A DNA stretch of 32,643 nucleotides from a virus (Duplodnaviria > Heunggongvirae > Uroviricota > Caudoviricetes), in IMG/VR virus record IMGVR_UViG_2740892229_000018, positions 1 through 32,643 of that record; one strand, written 5' to 3'. The notes under the pieces are model-generated. The model did not search any database. It saw nothing but the letters and a program-made list of their open reading frames with translations, and was not told the origin of the DNA. The position numbers and the translations under genes were made by a program. Positions 1-32,643 of the stretch are shown one piece after another; the first letter of the stretch is position 1; each line of letters begins with the position of its first letter.

Positions 1-933
1 ATGGACAACGACAAAATTGATCAACACAGCGACGAAATTGAAGTTGAGAGCGAAGAAAAAGAGCGCGGCAAAAAAATAGAAATAGATGAAGACCGACTCC
101 CCTCCCGGGCGATGGCAATTCATGAGCATATCCGCCAGGATGGTGAAAAAGAGCTGGAACGCGACGCAATGGCGCTACTGTGGTCAGCCATTGCGGCGGG
201 TCTGTCGATGGGCGCTTCGTTACTGGCAAAAGGGATATTTCATGTCGAACTGGAAGGTGTGCCGGGCAGCTTCTTGCTGGAGAATCTCGGTTATACCTTT
301 GGTTTTATTATCGTCATTATGGCCCGCCAGCAATTATTTACCGAAAATACCGTGACTGCGGTACTACCCGTCATGCAAAAACCGACAATGAGCAACGTCG
401 GCTTACTTATACGGTTATGGGGCGTCGTGCTGCTGGGTAATATTCTCGGGACAGGTATTGCGGCGTGGGCATTTGAATATATGCCTATCTTCAATGAAGA
501 AACTCGCGATGCATTTGTCAAAATCGGCATGGATGTGATGAAGAACACCCCCAGCGAGATGTTTGCCAACGCGATCATTTCCGGCTGGCTGATCGCCACT
601 ATGGTTTGGATGTTTCCTGCAGCGGGTGCGGCAAAGATTGTGGTGATTATATTGATGACCTGGCTTATTGCCCTGGGTGACACCACCCATATCGTGGTCG
701 GTTCTGTTGAAATCCTCTATCTGGTGTTTAACGGTACGCTGCACTGGAGCGATTTCATCTGGCCCTTCGCACTACCTACTTTAGCGGGGAACATCTGCGG
801 CGGCACCTTTATCTTCGCGTTAATGAGTCATGCACAGATTCGTAACGACATGAGCAATAAGCGTAAAGCAGAAGCACGCCAAAAAGCAGAACGTGCGGAA
901 AACATTAAGAAAAATTATAAAAACCCGGCATAA
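1..933 (+). CDS. yfdC: YfdC, formate/nitrite transporter (FNT) family inner membrane protein
   Basis: 310-aa ORF starting at window position 1; multi-pass hydrophobic protein matching my memory of E. coli YfdC, which sits immediately upstream of argW in K-12. Confidence 0.88.
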   Translation: MDNDKIDQHSDEIEVESEEKERGKKIEIDEDRLPSRAMAIHEHIRQDGEKELERDAMALLWSAIAAGLSMGASLLAKGIFHVELEGVPGSFLLENLGYTFGFIIVIMARQQLFTENTVTAVLPVMQKPTMSNVGLLIRLWGVVLLGNILGTGIAAWAFEYMPIFNEETRDAFVKIGMDVMKNTPSEMFANAIISGWLIATMVWMFPAAGAAKIVVIILMTWLIALGDTTHIVVGSVEILYLVFNGTLHWSDFIWPFALPTLAGNICGGTFIFALMSHAQIRNDMSNKRKAEARQKAERAENIKKNYKNPA

Positions 934-1008
934 ATGGCGAGGGTTTAAGCAATCGAGCGGCAGCGTACTTACCCCGCACTCCATTAGCGGGTATACTCAT
1001 GCCGCATT

Positions 1009-1083
1009 GTCCTCTTAGTTAAATGGATATAACGAGCCCCTCCTAAGGGCTAATTGCAGGTTCGATTCCTGCAGGGGACACCA
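1009..1083 (+). tRNA. argW: tRNA-Arg (anticodon CCU)
   Basis: 75-nt sequence GTCCTCTTAGTT...GCAGGGGACACCA read directly; anticodon loop CUCCUAA, T-arm GGTTCGATTCC, 3' CCA encoded. Confidence 0.92.
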
Positions 1084-1178
1084 TTTATCAGTTCGCTCCC
1101 ATCCGTACCAGTCCGCAAAATCCCCTGAATATCAAACCTTCTGTAGATGCACAGTTCGTAATGGTTCGCGTCAGATCG

Positions 1179-1208
1179 TTGACAGCCGCACTCCATGACG
1201 GGTAAAAA
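1179..1208 (+). promoter_or_regulatory. candidate sigma70 promoter for the integrase gene
   Basis: TTGACA at 1179-1184, 17-18 bp spacer, GTAAAA/TAAAAA at 1202-1208, about 40 bp upstream of the int ATG. Confidence 0.3.
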
Positions 1209-1244
1209 GTGGATAAAATAATTTTACCCACCGGATTTTTACCC

Positions 1245-2426
1245 ATGCTCACCGTTAAGCAGATTGAAGCAGCAAAGCCGAAAGAAAAACCATACCGCTT
1301 ACTCGATGGTAATGGCCTGTACCTTTATGTCCCTGTATCCGGAAAAAAGGTCTGGCAGCTTCGCTACAAGATTGACGGTAAGGAGAAAATCCTGACCGTC
1401 GGAAAATATCCGCTTATGACTTTGCAGGAGGCAAGGGATAAAGCATGGACTGCGAGGAAAGACATCTCGGTTGGCATCGATCCGGTAAAGGCGAAAAAGG
1501 CTTCGTCTAACAACAATTCCTTTAGCGCCATTTACAAGGAATGGTACGAGCACAAGAAGCAAGTCTGGTCAGTAGGCTATGCAAATGAACTTGCAAAAAT
1601 GTTTGATGACGACATTTTACCCATCATCGGCGGCCTTGAAATTCAGGATATTGAGCCGATGCAACTGTTGGAAGTAATCCGCAGATTTGAAGATCGCGGC
1701 GCAATGGAGCGAGCCAACAAAGCACGCAGAAGATGCGGCGAGGTTTTCCGTTACGCTATTGTCACTGGTAGGGCTAAATATAACCCGGCACCTGACCTTG
1801 CTGACGCCATGAAGGGATACCGCAAGAAGAACTTCCCGTTTCTTCCTGCAGACCAGATCCCGGCATTTAACAAAGCACTGGCAACATTTTCAGGAAGTAT
1901 CGTATCGCTCATTGCCACCAAGGTTTTACGCTATACAGCCCTAAGAACGAAAGAGCTTCGTTCCATGCTATGGAAGAACGTCGATTTTGAAAACAGGATT
2001 ATCACCATCGACGCCAGTGTGATGAAAGGACGCAAAATTCATGTGGTTCCTATGTCAGACCAGGTGATTGAACTTCTCACTACGCTAAGCTCAATCACTA
2101 AACCGGTATCAGAGTTTGTTTTTGCCGGGCGCAACGATAAGAAGAAGCCAATCTGCGAGAACGCGGTGCTACTTGTGATCAAACAAATCGGCTATGAGGG
2201 GCTGGAAAGCGGTCACGGATTCAGGCATGAATTCAGCACGATTATGAACGAGCACGAATGGCCTGCCGACGCCATTGAAGTGCAACTGGCACATGCCAAC
2301 GGCGGTTCTGTGCGTGGAATTTACAACCATGCTCAGTATCTCGATAAGCGCAGAGAAATGATGCAGTGGTGGGCGGACTGGATTGATGAAAAGGTGGAGC
2401 AACCAACATTGCTATATCTCAGATAG
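1245..2426 (+). CDS. intS: tyrosine integrase, P4/IntS type
   Basis: ORF beginning MLTVKQIEAAKPKEKPYRLLDGNGLY at ATG 1245 (the track ORF starts at an upstream GTG, 1209); matches my memory of K-12 IntS (CPS-53/KplE1); positioned directly after argW and transcribed away from it. Confidence 0.9.
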   Translation: MLTVKQIEAAKPKEKPYRLLDGNGLYLYVPVSGKKVWQLRYKIDGKEKILTVGKYPLMTLQEARDKAWTARKDISVGIDPVKAKKASSNNNSFSAIYKEWYEHKKQVWSVGYANELAKMFDDDILPIIGGLEIQDIEPMQLLEVIRRFEDRGAMERANKARRRCGEVFRYAIVTGRAKYNPAPDLADAMKGYRKKNFPFLPADQIPAFNKALATFSGSIVSLIATKVLRYTALRTKELRSMLWKNVDFENRIITIDASVMKGRKIHVVPMSDQVIELLTTLSSITKPVSEFVFAGRNDKKKPICENAVLLVIKQIGYEGLESGHGFRHEFSTIMNEHEWPADAIEVQLAHANGGSVRGIYNHAQYLDKRREMMQWWADWIDEKVEQPTLLYLR

Positions 2427-2472
2427 CACAAAGCCTTGCAATCCAGTGCAAAGCTTTGTGTGTCTCAGTTTT
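2427..2472 (+). terminator. hairpin immediately after the int stop codon (possible terminator)
   Basis: 13/14-bp stem cacaaagccttgca / tgcaaagctttgtg (2427-2460) with 6-nt loop; TTTT at 2469-2472 is 8 nt further on, so the U-tract is not ideal. Confidence 0.4.
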
Positions 2473-2577
2473 GTCTTATCAACCCTATTGATGCAATAAG
2501 ACAAAAAAAGGCATTAATGACACAAGTGAATAATTAGAAAATGTGGCCGCAACACTTAAGATGCGGCCTTCAATGCA

Positions 2578-4677
2578 TTAAAGAGGTGTTATGGTAAATG
2601 TTACATTTGTCTGGCTTGCACCAAGTGTTACTTCCAAATTCCCACCACTAACGCTGATAGAGGTTATCGAAATTCCAGAGCCACCATAGACAACCTGATT
2701 AGCGGTGTTTACAGAAAGCGTAGAACCATCATAGCTGAACGTAACCCCGTCAGCATAAGATTGATAGTTATTGACGCGTATTTTAAAAATCTCCCTATAA
2801 ACTGACGCGGCTCCTAAAAAACTAGGGAATGCGCCATTGATTTCTGTCAGTGGGATTTGGAAAGTTTTCCCAGGTCCAGAAAATCCCTTTTTGTGTTGGG
2901 ATACTCTGAATGTCTCATAGGAACCAGTTGACAGTAACTGCCCTCTATATGCTGATTCTTTATGAAATGCTTGTACTGACTCCGCATAATTTACGACACC
3001 TCTACCAACCCTTCCTGTGTCAATTTCTAATGTTGAACCAGTATCCACTAAAGATGCCGGGAAGTTAAATGTGGCACCATTCCAGAAGGTTATTCTGGGA
3101 ACGGTGATGTGGGTATTTACACCTGTAATTGTAAATAAGCGTTGGCGTTGTGTGCGTAGAGACAGGTTCAAAACAGCCGACGCTCCTCCGCTAGCCAGTA
3201 TCACTGCATTTGTAGTATCTATAGTGTCGTAGCAGTTGAAGGTCAGCGCTGCCGAACCAGCTACCATATTTATGTACGCGTTCGCTGACGGTGACGGACT
3301 CTCCGCACCAATATCACCAGCAACGTCACACTCTGAAAAATAATAAGATGAACCACCAGAAACACTACCTGCGTTATCGCATGCCGTTGATTGAAAGTTT
3401 ATGTACTGGCATCTTTCCATATGCCATCCATCTAACTCAGCGCCGGCCACATAGCAGCTGCTTATATGTAGACTTGTTGCTGCTTGGTTAACTGCTGCTG
3501 CTGGCGTCCCGCCTGTAGAGGTAAAGCGTGCTGCGTCATAAAAGACACCGTGAGATGTATTCTCAGAGAATCGGCATAAGGTAAGCCCACCTAACCAACC
3601 GCTTTTAACCCACAGACCATGTTTACAACCTCTGGTTCTCACTTTCTCAATGGAGTAGCCAACAACCTGCGGCATATAAATACCAACAGGTCGGTTGTCA
3701 GATGGCGCTAAATGACAGTCAATATATCCACCACTGAATGTCCAGTATCGGCAGATATCATTTCCGCCGATAAGGAAGACGCAGTTAACATCGCCTTCTA
3801 CGTAAGCTCCTTGCGTGGGAATGTATGCATCAAGTCCAGTAGTGGTAGTTGATGTTTTAACAATTGTAGATTCGCCGAGATTTACCGACCAATAGTCAGT
3901 AGCCTGCAATAAAACAGGTTGGTCTATAAGATAGCCACGACCTTTTTCGTCAGGTGTTTTAATCTTACCAAGAGAATCGAACATGTTCTGGAATGCAGCG
4001 GATGAGGAGGTTGCTCCAGACGGTAAAGAGCCATCATCCTGAACTTCAAAGGACACTGCGCCGAAGTCATCTACAGTTACATTTTCTTTATTTACCCGCT
4101 CCCAGTACCACATGGATGACACCACAGCGATTATGCCGCCATCATCGGATGGAATATTAGACATTCCAACTGTAGAGCGGGCAATAAATTCTCCACCACC
4201 TGTACGACCTCCCGAGTAGTAAGATGCCAGAAGAATTCTCTGACCTCCTACTTCTGGAACAATGGTTCGTAGTTCATCAAAAGAATCTACCTGACCGATT
4301 AACTTAAATCCATCAACGCCAGAAAGACGCTTCTCAAATTGGTCAGGGTCGTACTTCAACACATTAGGGAAATAGAACTGCTGCGCCCCATATGCATCGT
4401 ACACAGCCATAGAATGGCCTTGCCCGGTAACGAATTTGGCAATCTGTCCGTTATATACCGGATAACCAGCAGCGTTAATGATGATTGGTTGAGAAACAGG
4501 AACGTGAGAACCGTCTTCGTTCTCTACATAAACCTGAATCCGGTTTTCAGGATTTACCGGATCCGTGTCAATTTTACCGATATAAATTTCGCCATTGGCA
4601 ACTGCTTTAAAAGAACGCGCCATAGTGAAGAGTTGCGAAGGCATCGATACGATCACATTGGCTGTAATGTCTGTCAT
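2578..4677 (-). CDS. tailspike protein with P22 gp9-like N-terminal head-binding domain and a divergent receptor-binding domain
   Basis: 699 aa; N-terminus [29 protein letters not shown]...[10 protein letters not shown] matches the conserved P22 tailspike head-binding domain from memory; the remaining ~580 aa do not resemble the P22 sequence I recall; GGAG RBS 6 nt upstream. Confidence 0.85.
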
Positions 4678-4777: not shown

Positions 4778-5707
4778 TCAGTAGTTATGTACTGAAGGAG
4801 GCAATTCTTTATTCTTAAGTCTCATCCATGCGGAAAGATTCGTTGGTCCGTCTGGCTCATTAATATCAACATCTCGTGTGTGGTTTATTAAAACGTCTCT
4901 CGCCATTCCGATAACATACGAGAACTCATGACCATAGTCGTAGCATCTGCCGGAATAGTTCGATTGAATTTGTTTTAATGCCGGATACAGTTCGCGGAAT
5001 AATGCCTGTGAGCGGTTGGCATAATCCCATAACCATACAAGGCTGTTTGCTTCTTTTGCAGAAAGCTCGTTGGTTTTCTTCTCTTGTTTGCCGATTAACT
5101 CGCCTTCAAGCGGAACGCGAGCTGCAAGTGACAGAGCTTCGGTAAACTGCTCCTCGCTGATTTCTTTGTATGAACACCCAAAATGGGATTTCAGTGATGA
5201 CCACATGGTGATCATCGCCTTAGCCTGTTTTTCTTTTGGCAGAGACTGACCGCGACTCATGACGAGTTGTTTAATGGCTTCCTGCTGTTCAGTGGTGATT
5301 TTACCCGGCAACGCCTTTTTAGCTTTGCGTGGGTTAACTACATGGCCTTTAGTCCAGTACTCGTATAGCACATCGTCACACTCTTCTTGATACTGGATTA
5401 CATTGTCGCGGATTTCAGGGCGGACTTTGTTAGGGCTGATGGTTTGCAGCCAGCCAGCAAGTTTGCGAAGTGCCAAACAAATAATCTCACGGCACTGTTC
5501 ATCACCAGGAAGCTGCATTGTGATTTTCACAATGGAGGTTTTAAACCGTTGCTTTATTTTCGTAAACTGTGAAGCCCAATCCATACCCATGCCTTCAACG
5601 ATAGGTTTCATTGGGGTGTACGGCTCACCGTTGTGATTGACGACATAAAGCTCTGCGCCGTGGAATGGCACGTTGATAGTAGATACCGCTGTTGCTATAC
5701 TTTTCAT
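4778..5707 (-). CDS. ant: antirepressor Ant (immI region)
   Basis: Sits directly downstream of arc on the same strand, as in P22 immI. ATG at 5707 ([12 protein letters not shown]...) preferred over the track's upstream TTG at 5773. Confidence 0.7.
5672..5700 (+). promoter_or_regulatory. Psar-like promoter antisense to the ant start
   Basis: TTGATA (5672-5677), exact 17-bp spacer, TATACT (5695-5700) on the plus strand; predicted start lies at about the ant start codon. Confidence 0.45.
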
Positions 5708-6378: not shown

Positions 6379-6558
6379 ATGGCGAAAAAACCAGGTGAAA
6401 ACACAGGGAAAAACGGCGGAATATACCAAGAAGTTGGCCCACGCGGCGGTAAGAAAGACAATTTTGCCACCGTCAAGGACAACGAAAGGCTTCCACCAAC
6501 AACAAAGCCAGGTCATGGCTGGGTATTGGATAAGCGAACTCCAGACAGCAAAAAGTAA
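6379..6558 (+). CDS. small conserved protein, possibly YjzC-like; function unknown
   Basis: 59 aa from ATG 6379 (GAGG 8 nt upstream; the track's earlier ATG at 6364 lacks an RBS). Motif KPGE..NGGIYQEVGPRGG...ERLPPTT..GHGWVL resembles the YjzC-like small-protein family as I recall it. Confidence 0.45.
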   Translation: MAKKPGENTGKNGGIYQEVGPRGGKKDNFATVKDNERLPPTTKPGHGWVLDKRTPDSKK

Positions 6559-6563
6559 TAATC

Positions 6564-6588
6564 AAGCCGGGTCACTCCGGCTTTTTGA
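6564..6588. terminator. hairpin with T-run between the convergent cargo genes
   Basis: agccgg(6565-6570)/ccggct(6577-6582) followed by TTTTT on the plus strand; overlaps the last codons of the minus-strand 121-aa gene. Confidence 0.45.
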
Positions 6589-6937
6589 TATGTCGCTCGC
6601 AGAACTCAACAAGCCTGCTCATTAAGTAGCAGTAAGTCTCGTTGGCTCTTCCTGGTTCAACATCAACACCTACCCTTGAGCAGATATCGAATGCCATGTG
6701 AGCGCACTCATGGGCAATAGTAGATAGTTTGCCATTGAACACGCCTATCACATGCAAAACACCATTCTCGCTACTCATTGTATGAGACGCTCCGTTGGCG
6801 TCCGAGTCATGCACGTCAACGCCAAGTTTTTGATGCAGGCGTTGCCATTCTGGAAAGTCTCTACAAAACACAATTGTACCGCTCTCAAAGAGCGGTACGA
6901 GCATCTTTGGTACGTTTCCAATGTTAACTTTTTTCAT
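6572..6937 (-). CDS. hypothetical 121-aa protein with HExxH motif (putative minimal zincin-like metallopeptidase)
   Basis: MKKVNIGN... contains H76-E77-C-A-H80 with E94/E100 downstream; divergently transcribed from the lipoprotein gene; sits where P22 carries sieA. Function inferred from the motif only. Confidence 0.5.
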   Translation of the reverse strand: MKKVNIGNVPKMLVPLFESGTIVFCRDFPEWQRLHQKLGVDVHDSDANGASHTMSSENGVLHVIGVFNGKLSTIAHECAHMAFDICSRVGVDVEPGRANETYCYLMSRLVEFCERHIKKPE

Positions 6938-6971: not shown

Positions 6972-7457
6972 ATGAAAAAATCACTGTTAATTATCCCGCT
7001 TCTGCTGGCTGGGTGCGCAAAAGTAAGCGACTATCAGGCAAGTTGCGAGCAACGCTATCCAAAGCTTAGCGATATGGCTAATTGCCTTGATGCCAGCTTG
7101 AAGAACGACTCTCGCATGGCATCAGCACCAACACCTAAGCTGTATGTCCTTGCTGCGAAGATGCTCGGGCAAGGTGTCGATGAAGGCAAGATAAGTGACA
7201 CACAGGCAAGACTTGAACTTCAGAATCTTTATGTTCAATTACAAAGCCAAGAACAAGCACAACAAATAGCACAAAGCCAAGCATTCCAGCAGGCTTTATT
7301 GAATTATCAGGCTGTAAACACAATGCAAGCGATCGAGCAAAAAGCGCGCCAGCCTGTTATAACTCAACCTTACCCAACACGCGTTGACACATATACAAAC
7401 TGCAATTCAGGATTTGGAAACACGGTAACATGCAACAGTAGCAGTAATATCAGGTAG
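6972..7457 (+). CDS. putative lipoprotein with Gln-rich coiled-coil segment
   Basis: MKKSLLIIPLLLAGC has a signal peptide and lipobox (LAGC); AAGGAG RBS 8 nt upstream of ATG 6972; central segment QNLYVQLQSQEQAQQIAQSQAFQQALLNYQ. Confidence 0.65.
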   Translation: MKKSLLIIPLLLAGCAKVSDYQASCEQRYPKLSDMANCLDASLKNDSRMASAPTPKLYVLAAKMLGQGVDEGKISDTQARLELQNLYVQLQSQEQAQQIAQSQAFQQALLNYQAVNTMQAIEQKARQPVITQPYPTRVDTYTNCNSGFGNTVTCNSSSNIR

Positions 7458-7471
7458 TTATATCTTATCTT

Positions 7472-9352
7472 TTATTGCTGTTCTGCTGTAATTTGGCTTG
7501 AAAGTATAGGGCGTATCGCATTTGCAGCATTATTTAGCGCTCTTTCATAGGCTGGTGTTCCTGCTTTGGTGTTTGCCAGACGTAAGAGAGCATTCCTTGC
7601 TGCTTTGGACTCATACAAGCGCATCATTGCACCGAAACCAGCCTCAAGCCCCATTGATACGCCAAGAGTCGCAGTTGCGCCAATCGTCCTTATCCTGTTG
7701 GCTTGCGATTGCCCCGTCTGAGTTACTACATTTGCGGTGTCTGACCTTGCTGTTTGCTGTAGAACTTCATGAAGAGCATCAAGCTCTTTCATGTGCTTTC
7801 CTGAAAAAATAGTGTTGTAAATTTCACCGCCTGACTGAGATTTCAGCTTATTAACTTCAGTGATGAACTTGGCTGGAGAGTCACCGGCCTTTTCCGCTAT
7901 TTTGCTGACGTAAGCTGCACGCATAGCATCTTTCCCTTTATCATCCAGTGCGCTCCAGATTCGTTTCACGTCAGATGGTTTTCTGCTTAATACAACAGTA
8001 TTTATAAGTTCAGGACTGGCTTCACTGCTTGCCTTGTTGAGCTTGTTAGCAATGTTTTTATTAAGCACCTTATTATAAACGTTTGCATAATCGGAATTTG
8101 CTTTAAGGTATTTTGCTGCGTCTGACGCACCGAGGTTTTTTGCAACTGCGTTACGAAGGTCTTTTGACATTGCATTCTCTACCATATTGGTAGCTGCTTT
8201 TGCCTGGTTGGGGAAGACCATAGCATCTCCCTGAACATTAGATCTAAATGCTGTTCTGTGCTGACGCAAGAGATCAAACGTAACATCCAAATCAGTTGCA
8301 GGGTTTGCTAATTCTTCACGTAGGTTACGCAAGGATGTAAGCAGGCTTTGATTGGCTGAAGTCCCAAGCCGTTCCTGTCTTGCGATCGCTGTATTCAGAG
8401 CATTCATGGTATTTGTGGTATCAACTGCGGCATTACCCATTTTATTGGTGACGTCATTGATAACAGCGCCAGCGGCATCCTTCCGCCCCCTTAACGTGGT
8501 GGTAAGAGATTTCACCACATCATCAGGGTTGTACTCACCAAAACGGTCAAAATAATTACTTACCAGCTTACTACGCGTTGCATATTGCTCCGCTCGCTTT
8601 GAGCCTGTCCCGAGCAAAGCCCCCTCGGCATCCTGAGTTAGGCCGCGAGTGAAAGCATTTTTCGGCGGGATAACATCAGATGTCATTGGTGTCACGCCCA
8701 TCGATTCTGATGTGGCAATTTTCTTCGCCACTTCTGGCGCAATATCACCTTTTATAGCCGTTATTCCACGCCCTATTCCCTTTGCTGCTGCGGAAAGAAC
8801 ACCCTGAGTGGCAAGGTTAACTCCGGCATTTTTAGCTGCATTTTGTGCGAAATCGCCTTTCTGATTTGCGGCCTCTGCCAGTGATCCAATAGCCATGCTT
8901 CCTGCCGTTCCAACTCCTGGAACTAAATACCCACCAATTGTTTCACCGGCTTGCGCGTAGGGGTCTGTCGGTCGATCGACAGGGCGATAAACATCATCCA
9001 AAACCTTGGGGCCACCAAGCCCCTGACTGATTGCATTAATCAGACTTGCGCCACCCTGCAATACGTCAAATGGTATGTTTACCAGACCACGACCAGCCTG
9101 TTCTGCAATTTGCCCTGCACTTTGACCACCAGTGAGCCAATCGCCAGCTTGTTGCATCAATGATGGTTCTTCTTTCTGCTGCTGAGGTGGAGGGTATGCT
9201 GCATAAAACTGATCTCTTGCTTCAGCCCATTTGTCACCAGCCTTAGGGGCAACAACCTCATCAAAATATTGCGCTTGAGCCTGTGCTTTCTGTTCTTCAG
9301 TTAACGCCTGATACTGTGGAGAAGCGATAACATCTTTCCATGCTTTAGCCAT
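7472..9352 (-). CDS. DNA-ejection (injection) protein, P22 gp16-like
   Basis: 626 aa, last of three consecutive ejection-protein genes between tail needle and immI, as in P22; size close to P22 gp16. Confidence 0.7.
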
Positions 9353-28868: not shown

Positions 28869-30245
28869 TCATACGTCAGCCCCTTGTGCATATCGCCTGC
28901 CACGCGCAGCAGGTGCATTTGATGCTGTGCAAATCTGTCTGGCTTCATCCTGGTCACATGCAACAAAGTGTCCGTTGCAGAACCGCTGGTAAACCGTACC
29001 AAGTGAGCCAAAACGGTTTTTCGTCACGATGATTTCAGCAAATGGCGCGGCGCTACTGTTCTCGTCATATACCGCTTCCCGATAGAGCATGATGATTGAG
29101 TCTGCGTCCTGTTCAATGCTTCCTGAATCACGCAAATCTGCGTTTGTCGGGCGTTTGTTTGGTCGCTTCTCAACATCGCGCGAAAGCTGACTCAGGGAGA
29201 TAACAGGCGTTTTTAGGTCTTTCGCCATCGCCTTCAGGCTTCCGGAGATGTGAGCAATTGCAAGGTCGTTGCGGTCTGCTTTCGGCTTCTCAATCAGGCC
29301 AAGATAATCCGCCATGATGAGTGACAGGTTTGGATTTTCCTGTTTGTGCCGTTCTGCGATTGAGCGTATTTCTTCGACCGATAACCGCGAGGCATCGACT
29401 ACCCATACATCCAAATCTGCAAGCTGACTCATGCCGTTAGCAACACGTGCCCAGCCCTCGTCATCCATCGATGCAGGATTTCGCAGCACGCTAACCGACA
29501 TCCTCCCGGCGTTGGCAATACTTCGCTCTGCAATCTGCAATGCGCTCATTTCCATTGAGAAAATCAATACTCCGCGCCGGACGTCAGAACCAGGAATAAC
29601 GCGGCTTGCAACGCCTTCGGCAATCTTCAGCGCCAGTTCGGTTTTCCCCATACCAGGACGAGCAGCGATTATCACCAGGTCTTCCGCGTTCATCCCTCCG
29701 GTGATGGCATCAAGTTCTTCGATTCCGGTCTTCAGGGTATCGGACTCTTCTCCGTTCCTCAGACGCCTGTCAAGCGTGTCAGTGTAGTCAGTAATGATTT
29801 CCCCTAACCGTACAGGTTTTACCTCGTCACGGGGCTTTCTGATGGCTGAAAGACGCTTTACAAGTTCATCCATCGCCTGACTCGATGCGTCGATGGTTCC
29901 GCTCTGAATTGGTTCACGCATTTCATCCATGATTTCCAGCACCAGACGGCGGTGATAGTTATCCGCGACCATTCCGGCATATCCCTTCAGGTTTGCGGCA
30001 CTCGGGCAGTTTTTGCTGGTCATCAGGATTGACGTGAAATGCTCCTCTCCGCACGCCTCGGCAACCATCAGCGCGTCGATTAGGTTTCTGTTTCTCGCCT
30101 GCTTGCGGATAACCTCGAAGGCTTTCCGGTAGAGCGGAATTGAAAACGCTTCCGGCTCAAGCGTTGCCAGAACGTCGCTGGCGGTTGGCGTTAATCCACC
30201 AATCAGCAGACCGCCGATAACGCTCGCTTCGATATCCTGTCTCAT
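28869..30245 (-). CDS. replicative DNA helicase, DnaB family (P22 gene 12-like)
   Basis: 458 aa with Walker A ARPGMGKT and DnaB-like N-terminal domain; downstream of the initiator gene. Confidence 0.9.
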
Positions 30246-31063
30246 GCAATCCCCCTGTCTGCAAACTTCCCTTCACGAACTCCCGTTAACGAATCTTCTC
30301 TCAGCAGGTAATCAAAATCGGCCGTCCAGCCCGTGTCGTTGTCTCCGAAGTAAAACGGCTTGGCCTGATGCACAAACGCCCTGACATACGCCCTGAAACC
30401 GTCCACGTTTGGCGTTTTCAGTTGCGGGATGATTTTCTTCAGGCGGCGTTTGCGTTTCTCGTTGACCGCAACAGCGTGTGGAAGTCTGTCACCGACTTCG
30501 GTGTTGTAGGCGTTCAGGAAGGATTCGTAGTCGATTCGTTCTGCCTTGCGACGTTCAGGTTTAACCTGCCCATCGCCGCCCCCGTTAGGGGGTAAGGGGG
30601 TATTTGTATTTATTGTCTTTTGTATATTGTCTTTTGTGTTTAGCTGACTTGGCTTATACCCATTAGCCGACTTGGCTAATGTTTTATTAGCTGTTTTAGC
30701 TAATGTTAAGCTGTCCTGGCTAATCCACTGAGAAACCACCTTGTTCACTCCGATTTTCACGCCATCAGCAATGAGGAATTTACGCTCAATAAGCTGGCGC
30801 TTGGCAGCGCAAACATGAGTGTGATGAATACCTGTCATGGCTGCTATCTGCGTGTTTGTGAGTCGATCCATCGGCTTATTGAATCCGTATGTCTTGCGCA
30901 TGATAGCGAGCATCACCTTCAACTGCCGGACGGTTAAATCAGCCATCAGCAGACTGTCGGTAATCTCGTTAGCAACGCGCATGAAACCATCTTCGGTATC
31001 TGCCACGCGATGCTCCACGACCTCCAGTTGAGGCCTGTAATCAGCTAACTTAACGACGCCCAT
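30242..31063 (-). CDS. replication initiation protein (lambda O / P22 gene 18-like)
   Basis: 273 aa; origin iterons lie inside the central coding region as in lambda O; start overlaps the upstream small ORF. Confidence 0.8.
30600..30725. repeat. replication origin: four ~18-bp iterons plus AT-rich segment
   Basis: Direct repeats ttagctgacttggcttat (30640), ttagccgacttggctaat (30663), ttagctgttttagctaat (30687), ttaagctgtcctggctaat (30706); adjacent AT-rich stretch with two copies of ttgtcttttgt (30601-30639). Confidence 0.65.
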
Positions 31064-31211
31064 GTTTCACTCCTGCTTTGGCTAGTCTGTAAACACCAAC
31101 AAGGCGCTCTGCGAACGCCCTGTTATTTGCTGCGGCTACCACTAATCCCTCAGGTGAATCAGGGTGTCGAATCTCTTCTTTTTCCTGGTATTTCTTACGA
31201 CGTTTTGTCAT
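31050..31211 (-). CDS. hypothetical 53-aa basic protein between cII and the initiator gene
   Basis: [53 protein letters not shown] from ATG 31211 with AGGAG RBS 7 nt upstream; the RBS/start context looks like the lambda O start as remembered; below the ORF-track length cutoff. Confidence 0.35.
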   Translation of the reverse strand: MTKRRKKYQEKEEIRHPDSPEGLVVAAANNRAFAERLVGVYRLAKAGVKHGRR

Positions 31212-31243
31212 AATTACTCCTGTGGATTGATCCAGTAATGACC

Positions 31244-31537
31244 TCAGAATTCCATCTGGATTTGTTCAGAACGCTCGGTTGCCGCCGGGCGTTTTTTATT
31301 GGTGAGAATCGAAGCAACTTGTCGTGCCAATCGAGCCATGTCGTCGTCAACGACGCCCCATTCAAGAACAGCAAGCAGCATTGAGAACTTTGGAATCCAG
31401 TCCCTCTTCCACCTGCTGATCTGCGACTTATCAACTCCCACAGCTTCCGCTGTCTTCTCAGTTCCAAGCATTGCGATTTTGTTAAGCAACGCACTCTCGA
31501 TTCGTAGAGCCTCGTTGCGTTTGTTTGCACGAACCAT
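31244..31537 (-). CDS. cII: transcriptional activator CII
   Basis: 97 aa MVRANKRNEALRIESALLNKIAMLGTEKTAEAVGVDKSQISRWKRDWIPKF..., essentially lambda CII from memory. Confidence 0.93.
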   Translation of the reverse strand: MVRANKRNEALRIESALLNKIAMLGTEKTAEAVGVDKSQISRWKRDWIPKFSMLLAVLEWGVVDDDMARLARQVASILTNKKRPAATERSEQIQMEF

Positions 31538-31547
31538 ATGTAAGTAT
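31515..31547 (+). promoter_or_regulatory. pRE-like promoter with CII-binding site
   Basis: TTGC-N6-TTGC (31515-31528) with AAGTAT-like -10 about 31541-31546, antisense to the cII start and directed toward cI. Confidence 0.6.
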
Positions 31548-31613
31548 TTCCTTAGATAACAATTGATTGAATGTATGCAAATAAATGCATACACCATAGG
31601 TGTGGTTTAATTT

Positions 31614-31649
31614 GATGCCCTTTTTCAGGGAGGTGATGTGTAAGAGCGG
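31614..31649 (-). promoter_or_regulatory. nutR-like site (boxA + boxB)
   Basis: Minus-strand CGCTCTTA (boxA) then CCCTGAAAAAGGG (boxB hairpin), starting 9 nt after the cro stop. Confidence 0.65.
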
Positions 31650-31656
31650 GAATGTC

Positions 31657-31872
31657 TTAAGCGGCTTTGTGTTCCGGCGGGAACACGTCATCAAGACTGA
31701 CTTTTGCGCCTAACTTGTTTAGGCACTCAACAAGAGCACGGCATGTTTTAAGGTCTGGGAAGCGACGACCAGATTCCCAATGTCCGATAGCTCCCTGTGT
31801 GCATCCAACTGCCTTAGCAAGTGTTGTTTGAGAGATACTCAGTGACTCTCGATATTTTCGTAGGTTGCTCAT
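31657..31872 (-). CDS. cro: Cro-like HTH repressor (non-lambda immunity)
   Basis: 71 aa MSNLRKYRESLSISQTTLAKAVGCTQGAIGHWESGRR... with XRE-type HTH; GGAGG RBS; divergent from cI and upstream of nutR and cII. Confidence 0.75.
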   Translation of the reverse strand: MSNLRKYRESLSISQTTLAKAVGCTQGAIGHWESGRRFPDLKTCRALVECLNKLGAKVSLDDVFPPEHKAA

Positions 31873-31898
31873 ATGCCCTCCATAGTAACCATGAAACA

Positions 31899-31927
31899 AT
31901 AATACGATATGTACTTTTAGAATGCAA
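31899..31927 (-). promoter_or_regulatory. PR-like promoter for cro
   Basis: Minus-strand TTGCAT (31922-31927), 17-bp spacer, TATTAT (31899-31904), about 25 nt upstream of the cro ATG. Confidence 0.5.
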
Positions 31928-31983
31928 GCAAAAAATACATCTTGTGCATGGATGGTTTTAGTACAGAGCGTAATAATAAGGGT

Positions 31984-32643
31984 ATGAAAATGAAATGGTA
32001 TGAACTGGCTAGATCCAGAATGAAAGAGCTCGGCATAACTCAAGAGAAGTTAGCTGAAGAGCTTGGTATGACGCAGGGTGGAATTGGTCACTGGTTGCGC
32101 GGATCTCGTCATCCATCTCTTGACGAGATTGGTGTGGTGTTTAAATACCTTGGTATTGATAACGTCTCATTCAACCACGACGGTACATTTTCACCTGTTG
32201 GCGAATACTCATCTGCCCCCGTTAAAAAACAATATGAGTACCCTGTTTTTTCTCATGTTCAGGCAGGGATGTTCTCGCCTGAGCTTAGAACCTTTACCAA
32301 AGGTGATGCGGAGAGATGGGTCAGCACAACCAAAAAAGCCAGTGATTGTGCGTTTTGGCTTGAAGTTGAAGGTAATTCCATGACCGCGCCAACAGGCTCC
32401 AAGCCAAGCTTTCCTGACGGAATGTTAATTCTCGTTGACCCCGAGCAGGCTGTTGAGCCAGGTGATTTCTGCATAGCCAGACTTGGTGGTGACGAGTTTA
32501 CCTTCAAGAAACTGATCAGGGATAGCGGTCAGGTGTTCCTACAGCCACTAAACCCGCAATATCCAATGATTCCATGCAATGATAGCTGTTCCGTAGTAGG
32601 GAAAGTTATCGCCAGCCAGTGGCCTGAAGAGACATTTAGTTAA
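31984..32643 (+). CDS. cI: CI-type prophage repressor (HTH plus S24 LexA-like autopeptidase domain)
   Basis: N-terminal [23 protein letters not shown]; C-terminal domain with GNSM and ending [16 protein letters not shown] like lambda CI as I recall; start at 31984 or 31990; stop codon is the last triplet of the window. Confidence 0.85.

Follow-up and report, generated by a model that had tools for sequence, protein, structure and literature searches.

Short intervals between integrase and tailspike genes recur among prophages of the KplE1/HK620/Sf6 kind, and the one examined here raises the question of whether its slot for a serotype-conversion gene was always empty or has been emptied. We analysed a window of 32,643 nucleotides (the whole stretch of the Caudoviricetes record IMGVR_UViG_2740892229_000018 from IMG/VR) and read the region, with high confidence, as the attL end of a prophage of P22-like (Lederbergvirus) type that carries the KplE1/HK620/Sf6 recombination module and has lost the gene from its int–tailspike slot. 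The recombination layout, with int and a torI-type xis at opposite prophage ends, is already known from KplE1, HK620, Sf6, CUS-3 and Kapi1, and published work covers how the module is organised and regulated (PMC2951348, PMC3509656, 10.1101/2021.04.09.439263). The sole new detail concerns the int–tailspike gap, which is a deletion scar. Genes, att core, identity of attL, relic gene and deletion junction can all be read directly from the DNA, and are described in turn below.

The attL end at argW

The window opens in host DNA, with yfdC (1..933, plus strand; Pfam Form_Nir_trans) lying 5′ of argW, where K-12 and other Escherichia coli genomes also have an annotated yfdC. The argW gene itself, a tRNA-Arg(CCT) at 1009..1083 on the plus strand and the sole tRNA found by ARAGORN, is identical to K-12 argW by alignment, and its final 15 nt are supplied by the prophage, the match to free phage HK620 starting at 1069. 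The attL core, CTGCAGGGGACACCAT (1069..1084, plus strand), is a sequence annotated as attP core in HK620 and Sf6 and as attL core in CUS-3; it overlaps the 3′ end of argW, leaves the tRNA intact and is single-copy in the whole window, across which neither a second copy of the argW 3′ end nor an attR was found. Alignment against K-12 CPS-53, Sf6 and HK620, as proposed in a preliminary description of this DNA, showed the attL arm with the intS promoter region (1085..1244, plus strand) to be nearly identical to the K-12 KplE1 attL and to the int side of the HK620/Sf6 attP, in agreement with the argW integration claimed there. The KplE1 counterpart of this arm carries PintS, IntS arm-type sites and TorI sites (PMC2951348), and, given its near-identity to the K-12 attL, 1085..1244 may carry such sites too. 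A generic promoter and terminator scan of 950-2700 returned no more sites than were found in shuffled sequence.

The integrase gene (1245..2426, plus strand) encodes an IntS-type tyrosine integrase of 393 aa with the Pfam domains Arm-DNA-bind_3, Phage_int_M and Phage_integrase. It starts with ATG at 1245, 161 bp past argW, adjoins attL and is oriented outward from the tRNA. Its product is identical to K-12 IntS at 382 of 385 positions (99%) and consists of those 385 aa plus an 8-aa C-terminal extension, the customary stop codon being CAA here. Both the assignment to the IntS type and transcription away from argW had been stated in the preliminary description, and both are borne out. The gene runs into a conserved int terminator hairpin (2421..2465, plus strand; predicted folding energy −21.3 kcal/mol, z = −4.6) that is kept in EC6622, HZ41, HCP5S3_I4 and the assemblies L024 and L025; the HK620 record annotates the homologous site as the place where the prophage excision transcript terminates.

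Beyond the tailspike gene lie P22-type virion assembly and ejection genes (gp4, gp10, gp26, gp14, gp7, gp20 and gp16) and an immI region. Among the gene calls on the source contig the virion-assembly set is complete from gp4 to the tailspike, with ORF sizes as expected and the Pfam families P22_Tail-4, Phage_stabilise, Phage_tail_NK, P22_gp7, Inj_translocase, Phage_P22_gp16, Arc/Mnt and P22_AR. The antirepressor gene ant (4778..5707, minus strand; P22_AR_N and P22_AR_C) adjoins the tailspike gene within the immI/ant moron and is among the gene calls on the source contig, and Pfam places a lambda-like immunity and replication region (cI, cro, cII, O-like and DnaB-like genes) at 28869-32643. The ant moron also contains uncharacterised genes, including a 161-aa lipoprotein ORF at 6972-7457. 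A direct repeat (2420-2446 and 7263-7289) was considered as a boundary sequence and rejected as chance, because its second copy lies inside the lipoprotein ORF and has no hairpin partner.

A deletion scar between integrase and tailspike

As first described, integrase and tailspike genes converge with 151 bp between their stop codons (2427-2577). This gap comprises, in order, the conserved int terminator, an Acyl_transf_3 acetyltransferase gene reduced to its 19 terminal codons and stop, and a terminator hairpin. The relic (2478..2537, plus strand), which reads INPIDAIRQKKALMTQVNN followed by a stop codon, was recognised by similarity to an intact 345-aa Acyl_transf_3 gene in the slot of an E. 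coli HCP5S3_I4 prophage, with whose final 60 nt, at the same position, it shares ~92% nucleotide identity; tblastn gave a 20-residue match to an acyltransferase C-terminus at 2475-2534 (E = 1e-4). Homologues outside phages, in Enterobacter, Erwinia and Vibrio, share the C-terminal motif I(N/K)PID..RQ. The membrane acyltransferase domain has ~330 aa at full length, and 2478-2537 is a gene fragment rather than a member of the family.

Alignment with HCP5S3_I4 falls into two blocks, one from 900 to 2487 that runs as far as the int terminator, and one from 2478 to 2832 that begins with the final 60 nt of the acyltransferase gene; between them, 1.1 kb of HCP5S3_I4 sequence is missing from the window. 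The junction TTATCAACC (2476..2484, plus strand) corresponds to the 9-bp repeat TCATCAACC that bounds the missing 1.1 kb in HCP5S3_I4, the microhomology being read in this relative (tailspike 73% identical in DNA), the only one to represent the undeleted state here, and not in the true parent. The alignment indicates that ~1.1 kb was lost between the 9-bp repeats, taking with it the promoter and 94% of the acetyltransferase coding sequence. An identical junction was found in two independent assemblies, L024 and L025, whose gap sequences are 98% and 92% identical to this one, respectively. The GC-rich hairpin right after the tailspike stop (2545..2568; predicted folding energy close to −15 kcal/mol for both strands, z near −2.8) is identical in sequence in HCP5S3_I4, L024 and L025, and is probably the terminator of the tailspike gene and formerly of the acetyltransferase gene too.

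The preliminary description had reported no O-antigen modification cassette between integrase and tailspike. For intact genes this stands: tblastn of the whole window with GtrA, GtrB, GtrS, Sf6 Oac, the HK620 O-antigen modification protein and a GT2 glycosyltransferase returned only the acyltransferase relic, and no intact gtrABC, oac-type or other glycan-modifying gene lies between int and tailspike. It had, however, passed over the 3′ relic of the deleted gene. Because the promoter and nearly all of the coding sequence are gone, the prophage probably no longer acetylates host polysaccharide through this slot, with a probable loss of serotype conversion. The conversion genes cited for related elements are where they were said to be, with yfdG/H/I (gtr) directly behind intS in K-12 CPS-53 and oac between int and tailspike in Sf6. 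Elsewhere the slot holds the HK620 gene, neuO in CUS-3 or, in L026, a GT2 gene; HK620 was rejected as a comparator free of a slot gene, its record listing a 408-aa O-antigen modification gene there. Among 64 comparable IMG/VR loci the slot is occupied in 36 and empty in 24, and an empty slot is therefore common, not unusual. Slots that likewise appear to have decayed hold a frameshifted GT2 gene (L031), gtrA fragments at two IMG/VR loci and the fragment in Kapi1.

The gene that faces this scar (2578..4677, minus strand) encodes a tailspike of 699 aa that joins a P22-type head-binding domain (Pfam Head_binding at aa 1-113, nt 4339-4677, E = 4e-64) to a rare receptor-binding domain. PDB matches to the P22, Sf6 and HK620 tailspikes cover the N-terminal ~115-135 residues, and weaker ones (6tgf and three depolymerases) extend to about residue 232, while the receptor-binding part is 36-37% identical to the tailspikes of phages HK2 and pSb-1. 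The nearest tailspike proteins share 98%, 75% and 63% identity. Across 5,426 complete E. coli genomes megablast found no high-identity copy of the receptor-binding domain, and a distant-mode search of complete E. coli genomes with the tailspike matched a single genome. In a different phage type (L030), a receptor-binding domain of 68% identity adjoins an acetyltransferase of 65% identity. The rarity of this domain, and the matching acetyltransferase that accompanies it in other phages, could be of use in identifying the glycan it binds.

Tentatively, and with more doubt than conviction, we suggest that the receptor-binding domain and the adjacent acetyltransferase form a two-gene unit for recognising and masking a glycan, one that moves between unrelated phage types and repeatedly loses its masking half. 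Candidate instances are the P22-like podoviruses represented here and by HCP5S3_I4, and the L030 phage with its different tailspike anchor; the recognising half appears to be kept and the masking half lost, by deletion here, in L024 and in L025, and through the decay seen in L031, the two IMG/VR loci with gtrA fragments and Kapi1. Repeated loss of this kind would indicate that selection often acts against serotype conversion in lysogens of E. coli. The relic is the trace of a phage lineage that would once have modified a surface polysaccharide by acetylation until a clean microhomology deletion removed this capacity; it adds to the evidence for fast turnover among the slot's conversion genes.

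The far end of the prophage and competing readings

The source contig ends ~526 bp beyond the window, soon after cI, leaving ~7 kb of prophage outside view; its far end is consequently unreadable, and we can only infer an intact xis and attR there. A tblastn search of the whole window with TorI found no TorI-type excisionase. In all six relatives that share cI or O/P genes, the terminal 66-aa gene is identical to TorI (66/66) and is followed ~73 bp later by the att core, and the far ends of several of them adjoin dsdC or csc genes; HK620 and Sf6 likewise carry a TorI-type xis gene. By analogy with these relatives the source prophage should end torI-attR, as the preliminary description had predicted and matching the published organisation of the module, in which int and xis occupy opposite prophage ends (PMC2951348; Kapi1 preprint 10.1101/2021.04.09.439263).

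The prophage might instead be defective or truncated at this end, with no functional xis or attR and an int-first layout that would mark a CPS-53-like remnant. That the contig stops ~526 bp after cI, that K-12 CPS-53 proves such remnants to persist and that the IntS has an unusual 8-aa extension all agree with this, but the genes from int to cI are sized like their P22-like counterparts and include the full P22-type virion-assembly set, gp4 through tailspike, a draft assembly with several prophages commonly breaks within lambdoid early regions, and torI and attR are present in each of the six relatives; we consider a defective prophage unlikely. Slightly less likely again is the persistence of serotype conversion through a gene elsewhere that homology does not recognise, as proposed for Kapi1. 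With the same int–tailspike abutment, that phage still alters the LPS profile and O-antigen of its host without a recognised gene, and none of three candidate genes changed the LPS profile on overexpression (10.1101/2021.04.09.439263). The uncharacterised genes of the ant moron, the lipoprotein among them, and the ~7 kb of unseen prophage would offer room for such a gene, whereas a search of the window for gtr, oac, GT2 and the HK620 gene gave no homologue.

The remaining alternatives concern the gap itself. If the slot had always been empty, the HCP5S3_I4 acyltransferase gene would be an insertion that took its terminal codons from pre-existing phage sequence. Empty slots are indeed frequent (24/64 loci), and the gap sequence appears stable and old because it is common to three prophages with tailspikes that share only 75-98% identity. 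Yet the INPID..RQK.. tail is the conserved C-terminus of chromosomal homologues in Enterobacter mori, Erwinia rhapontici, Vibrio and Photobacterium, and it also ends the acetyltransferase of the different phage type L030, matches that a borrowed tail would not make; we regard this history as very improbable. An assembly artefact at the int–tailspike junction, a possibility that the preliminary description had itself raised, has a negligible chance: although the source is a draft assembly, the junction lies ~28 kb from the nearer end of a 150,558-bp contig, recurs with sequence differences in L024 and L025, and has the same architecture in two isolated phages, Kapi1 and HZ41, as well as in complete genomes, EC6622 among them. 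We therefore take the junction as genuine.

Deletion of a former conversion gene at the attL end of a P22-like prophage is thus our preferred reading, and the module would then work as follows. While the phage genome is circular, its attP core, which matches the argW 3′ end exactly, would lie between intS and the torI-type excisionase gene; IntS would join attP with argW, the phage copy of the core rebuilding the tRNA, to give a prophage that starts attL-intS and should finish torI-attR. The intS gene would be transcribed outward from argW by its own promoter within attL. In KplE1 this promoter is repressed by IntS and TorI, so that excision is controlled by TorI from the opposite end, and promoter regulation here presumably follows KplE1. 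The int transcript would halt at the conserved hairpin, and that of the tailspike gene, the final gene of the late operon arriving from the opposite side, at the GC-rich hairpin. Between the hairpins lies the slot in which this phage group keeps genes that modify the surface polysaccharide recognised by its own tailspike; here it formerly held the Acyl_transf_3 O-acetyltransferase gene, of which 19 codons and the shared terminator are left. The outcome is a secure annotation of an IntS/TorI-module P22-like prophage at argW with a decayed lysogenic-conversion slot, of little import beyond labelling.

Comparison with described elements

KplE1 (CPS-53) of K-12 shares the argW attB, the 16-bp core, an IntS identical at 382/385 positions, a near-identical attL arm, the outward orientation of intS and, presumably, TorI at the opposite end. 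The 10-kb KplE1 remnant, in which yfdG/H/I come straight after intS, lacks cI and virion genes, whereas the present element has a complete-looking set of P22-type morphogenesis, lysis, replication and immunity genes but lacks an intact conversion gene. Shigella phage Sf6, likewise a P22-like podovirus, shares the attP core, has an int of ~96% DNA identity and the same order of int, O-acetyltransferase gene and convergent tailspike gene, and carries an xis identical to TorI (66/66) across attP; its oac, however, is intact and merely a distant Acyl_transf_3 relative of the relic gene, and its tailspike has another receptor-binding domain. Coliphage HK620 has a recombination module with the same attP core and int terminator, an hkaC identical to TorI and a tailspike head-binding domain of 87% identity, but carries a 408-aa O-antigen-polymerase-like gene in the slot and retains mnt and ant only as remnants, whereas the present prophage has arc, mnt and ant.

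Coliphage CUS-3 shares the attL core and int, and its slot gene neuO likewise encodes a polysaccharide O-acetyltransferase matched to the tailspike target, although NeuO is a hexapeptide-repeat enzyme acting on K1 capsule and the tailspike is an endosialidase. The argW prophage of E. coli HCP5S3_I4 (NZ_CM149869.1) is the nearest complete-genome relative for the receptor-binding region (~73% DNA identity) and the gap, and shows the undeleted state with its intact 345-aa Acyl_transf_3 gene; it differs in an IS2 within the 3′ end of its tailspike gene, and has diverged, and is therefore a cousin and not the parent. Coliphage Kapi1 (vB_EcoP_Kapi1) also integrates at argW, and its int abuts the tailspike gene across a 171-bp gap with only a 34-aa ORF, which its authors link to an acyltransferase (10.1101/2021.04.09.439263). 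Although its gap sequence past the int terminator and its receptor-binding domain are unrelated, and an HNH gene adjoins its tailspike gene, Kapi1 is the nearest described parallel to an empty slot that keeps a relic.

Remnant of an acetyltransferase gene between int and the tailspike gene

The left end of the prophage runs from yfdC (1-933; Form_Nir_trans), whose ATG opens the window, through argW, a tRNA-Arg(CCT) gene (1009-1083, + strand; ARAGORN) and the only tRNA gene in the window, to a tyrosine integrase ORF of 393 aa (ATG 1245 to 2426, + strand) with Arm-DNA-bind_3, Phage_int_M and Phage_integrase domains. On the opposite strand lies a tailspike ORF of 699 aa (2578-4677), of which residues 1-113 form the P22 tailspike head-binding domain, followed by the antirepressor gene ant. 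The preliminary description had int read away from argW and converging on the tailspike gene with 151 bp between the stop codons (2427-2577), and its coordinates were correct. It had also found no O-antigen modification gene in this gap, which holds for an intact gene but not for the 3' remnant of an Acyl_transf_3 O-acetyltransferase gene that we locate at 2478-2537.

This relic (+ strand) reads INPIDAIRQKKALMTQVNN followed by a stop codon. In E. coli HCP5S3_I4 (NZ_CM149869.1) an intact 345-aa Acyl_transf_3 gene, its product in the same family as Oac of Sf6, separates intS from a related tailspike gene. Window 900-2487 aligns with HCP5S3_I4 to just beyond the int terminator, window 2478-2832 aligns from the final 60 nt of the acyltransferase gene (five mismatches in 60 nt) into the tailspike 3' end, and the 1.1 kb of HCP5S3_I4 between both aligned parts has no counterpart in the window. 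The missing segment carries TCATCAACC on both flanks in HCP5S3_I4, and one copy, TTATCAACC, occupies the window join (2476-2484), which is the trace expected where short direct repeats have recombined and the DNA between them is deleted. The motif I(N/K)PID..RQ closes the homologues of the HCP5S3_I4 enzyme that are encoded on the chromosomes of Enterobacter mori, Erwinia rhapontici, Vibrio and Photobacterium, as well as one from a different type of phage, and the tail preserved in the relic is therefore that of the enzyme family and not of the phage backbone. In HCP5S3_I4 itself, an IS2 copy interrupts the related tailspike gene near its 3' end (locus L017, 4545-5890); this prophage has kept the acetyltransferase gene and has a disrupted tailspike gene, the opposite of the window.

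The int terminator hairpin at 2421-2465 (predicted folding: -21.3 kcal/mol, z = -4.6) is kept 3' of intS in EC6622, HZ41, HCP5S3_I4 and the comparison loci L024 and L025, and HK620 has its homologous site annotated as terminating the prophage excision transcript. A GC-rich hairpin directly past the tailspike stop codon (2545-2568; about -15 kcal/mol on either strand), identical in sequence in HCP5S3_I4, L024 and L025, was probably once a terminator shared by the two convergent genes.

A junction identical to that of the window is present in both L024 and L025. The latter is an argW prophage with a tailspike 75% identical to the window's and an int-tailspike gap of 172 bp; the former (7100-7905) has a 98% identical tailspike and the same gap sequence, with an A-run within the relic longer by one base, as expected of sequence that no longer codes. 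In L024, intS is reduced to about its last 65 bp and the flank is dacD, not argW, indicating that the tailspike module has moved, scar included, to a prophage that integrates by another system. The deletion is common to these prophages and older than the source strain. The possibility that the int-tailspike junction is an assembly artefact is ruled out, because it recurs independently in these loci and sits well inside a 150-kb contig.

Slot contents and serotype conversion in relatives

The space between int and the convergent tailspike gene (the slot) holds oac in Sf6, a 408-aa O-antigen-polymerase-like gene in HK620, neuO in CUS-3, yfdG/H/I (gtr) in K-12 CPS-53 and only a 34-aa ORF in Kapi1, bearing out the earlier statement that related elements, CPS-53 and Sf6 among them, carry conversion genes near the attachment site. 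Among the best 80 IMG/VR loci by IntS similarity, 64 had a convergent head-binding tailspike gene within 7 kb; the slot was empty in 24 of these (<250 bp, no ORF >26 codons), 380-480 bp long in four (two with gtrA fragments) and occupied in 36, proportions that are rough since the sample may include near-duplicates. Occupied slots contained an Acyl_transf_3 gene (about 15 of 36), gtrA and gtrB with a third transferase gene (nine) or a hexapeptide (NeuO-like) acetyltransferase gene (about eight), with single loci carrying a GDSL gene, a GT2-like gene, an HK620-type gene or a broken tailspike gene. Of the 25 complete E. coli genomes that match best, many, EC6622 for example, likewise have no gene annotated in this interval. 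Taken together, these listings make the empty slot a common state and cargo decay recurrent. Another decayed conversion gene occupies the slot of locus L031 (7100-8514), where the GT2 glycosyltransferase gene found intact in the slot of L026 is frameshifted; the L031 tailspike is 63% identical to the window's.

With its acetyltransferase gene gone from the slot, the prophage probably does not acetylate the host polysaccharide. A conversion gene of unrecognised type elsewhere in the prophage, as has been proposed for Kapi1, is improbable. The ant moron includes a 161-aa ORF (6972-7457, + strand) with a lipoprotein signal, MKKSLLIIPLLLAGC, at the position of sieA in P22; it belongs to no Pfam family, its sole match is PHROG 6067 (unknown function), and its candidate role is in exclusion or at the lysogen surface. 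Two small neighbours (6572-6937, - strand; 6379-6558, + strand) match the function-unknown PHROGs 1365 and 3202 and are homologues of HK620 hkcC/hkcD-type genes.

The receptor-binding domain of the tailspike is rare. The P22, Sf6 and HK620 tailspikes in the PDB match the protein over its first 115-135 residues only, and the receptor-binding part (residues 114-699; window 2578-4338) was absent at megablast level from 5,426 complete E. coli genomes. Its best matches among phage records, in phages HK2 and Shigella boydii phage pSb-1, reach 36-37% identity, and the closest relatives of the tailspike in a large protein collection are 98%, 75%, 75% and 63% identical. Locus L030 (355-3650), on a contig whose tail genes differ from those of the window, encodes a receptor-binding domain 68% identical to the window's on a different N-terminal anchor, Tail_spike_N, and this tailspike gene converges on an adjoining Acyl_transf_3 gene 65% identical to the HCP5S3_I4 enzyme. 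The pairing suggests that receptor-binding domain and acetyltransferase gene may travel together between phage types and act on the same glycan.

Integrase, attachment site and the far end of the prophage

The integrase is identical to K-12 IntS at 382 of 385 positions, and its length of 393 aa instead of the usual 385 reflects a C-terminal addition, QPTLLYLR (2403-2426), because the codon that ends the gene in relatives (TAA or TGA) is CAA in the window. Between argW and the start codon of int (1085-1244), the window is almost identical to attL of the K-12 cryptic prophage KplE1 and to the attP arm on the int side in HK620, Sf6 and Kapi1. Homology to free-phage HK620 begins at 1069, the start of a 16-bp att core, CTGCAGGGGACACCAT (1069-1084), that is the same as the cores annotated for attP in HK620 and Sf6 and for attL in CUS-3. 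The core occurs once in the whole window, and a repeat search found no second copy of the argW end within it.

The window closes at 32643 with the stop codon of a cI-type repressor gene (HTH_3 and Peptidase_S24). Calculated from an exact match of the tailspike sequence, it corresponds to 117,390-150,032 of contig CCPP01000028.1 (GCA_000752895.1; 150,558 bp), which stops ~526 bp further on, probably at a repeat that the genome also has in another lambdoid prophage. No TorI-like sequence was found inside the window by tblastn. The prophage's cI and O-like replication protein matched long contigs of other strains. The early-left region of six such relatives (L002, L003, L018, L019, L020 and L023) ends in a 66-aa gene identical at 66/66 residues to K-12 TorI (PDB 1Z4H), as are HK620 hkaC and Sf6 gene 18, and the att core follows ~73 bp later in all six, with host genes beyond it (dsdC in L019 and L020, csc sucrose genes in L002). 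Both established knowledge and every relative thus predict, as the preliminary description did, that the source strain would carry xis and attR at the far end.

In KplE1, HK620, Sf6, CUS-3 and Kapi1, attP separates int from the excisionase gene, which places int and xis at opposite prophage ends; attL overlaps the promoter of intS, which both IntS and TorI repress, and int transcription is uncoupled from that of xis (PMC2951348; PMC3509656; bioRxiv 10.1101/2021.04.09.439263). The window region probably works as this published IntS/TorI module: integration would occur at the argW 3' end, restoring the tRNA, int would regulate its own expression from the promoter within attL, and TorI, made from the far prophage end, would control excision, with the tailspike gene closing the late operon from the opposite side of the gap. 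Nothing in the region departs from known biology, to which the relic and its clean junction add a small new detail.
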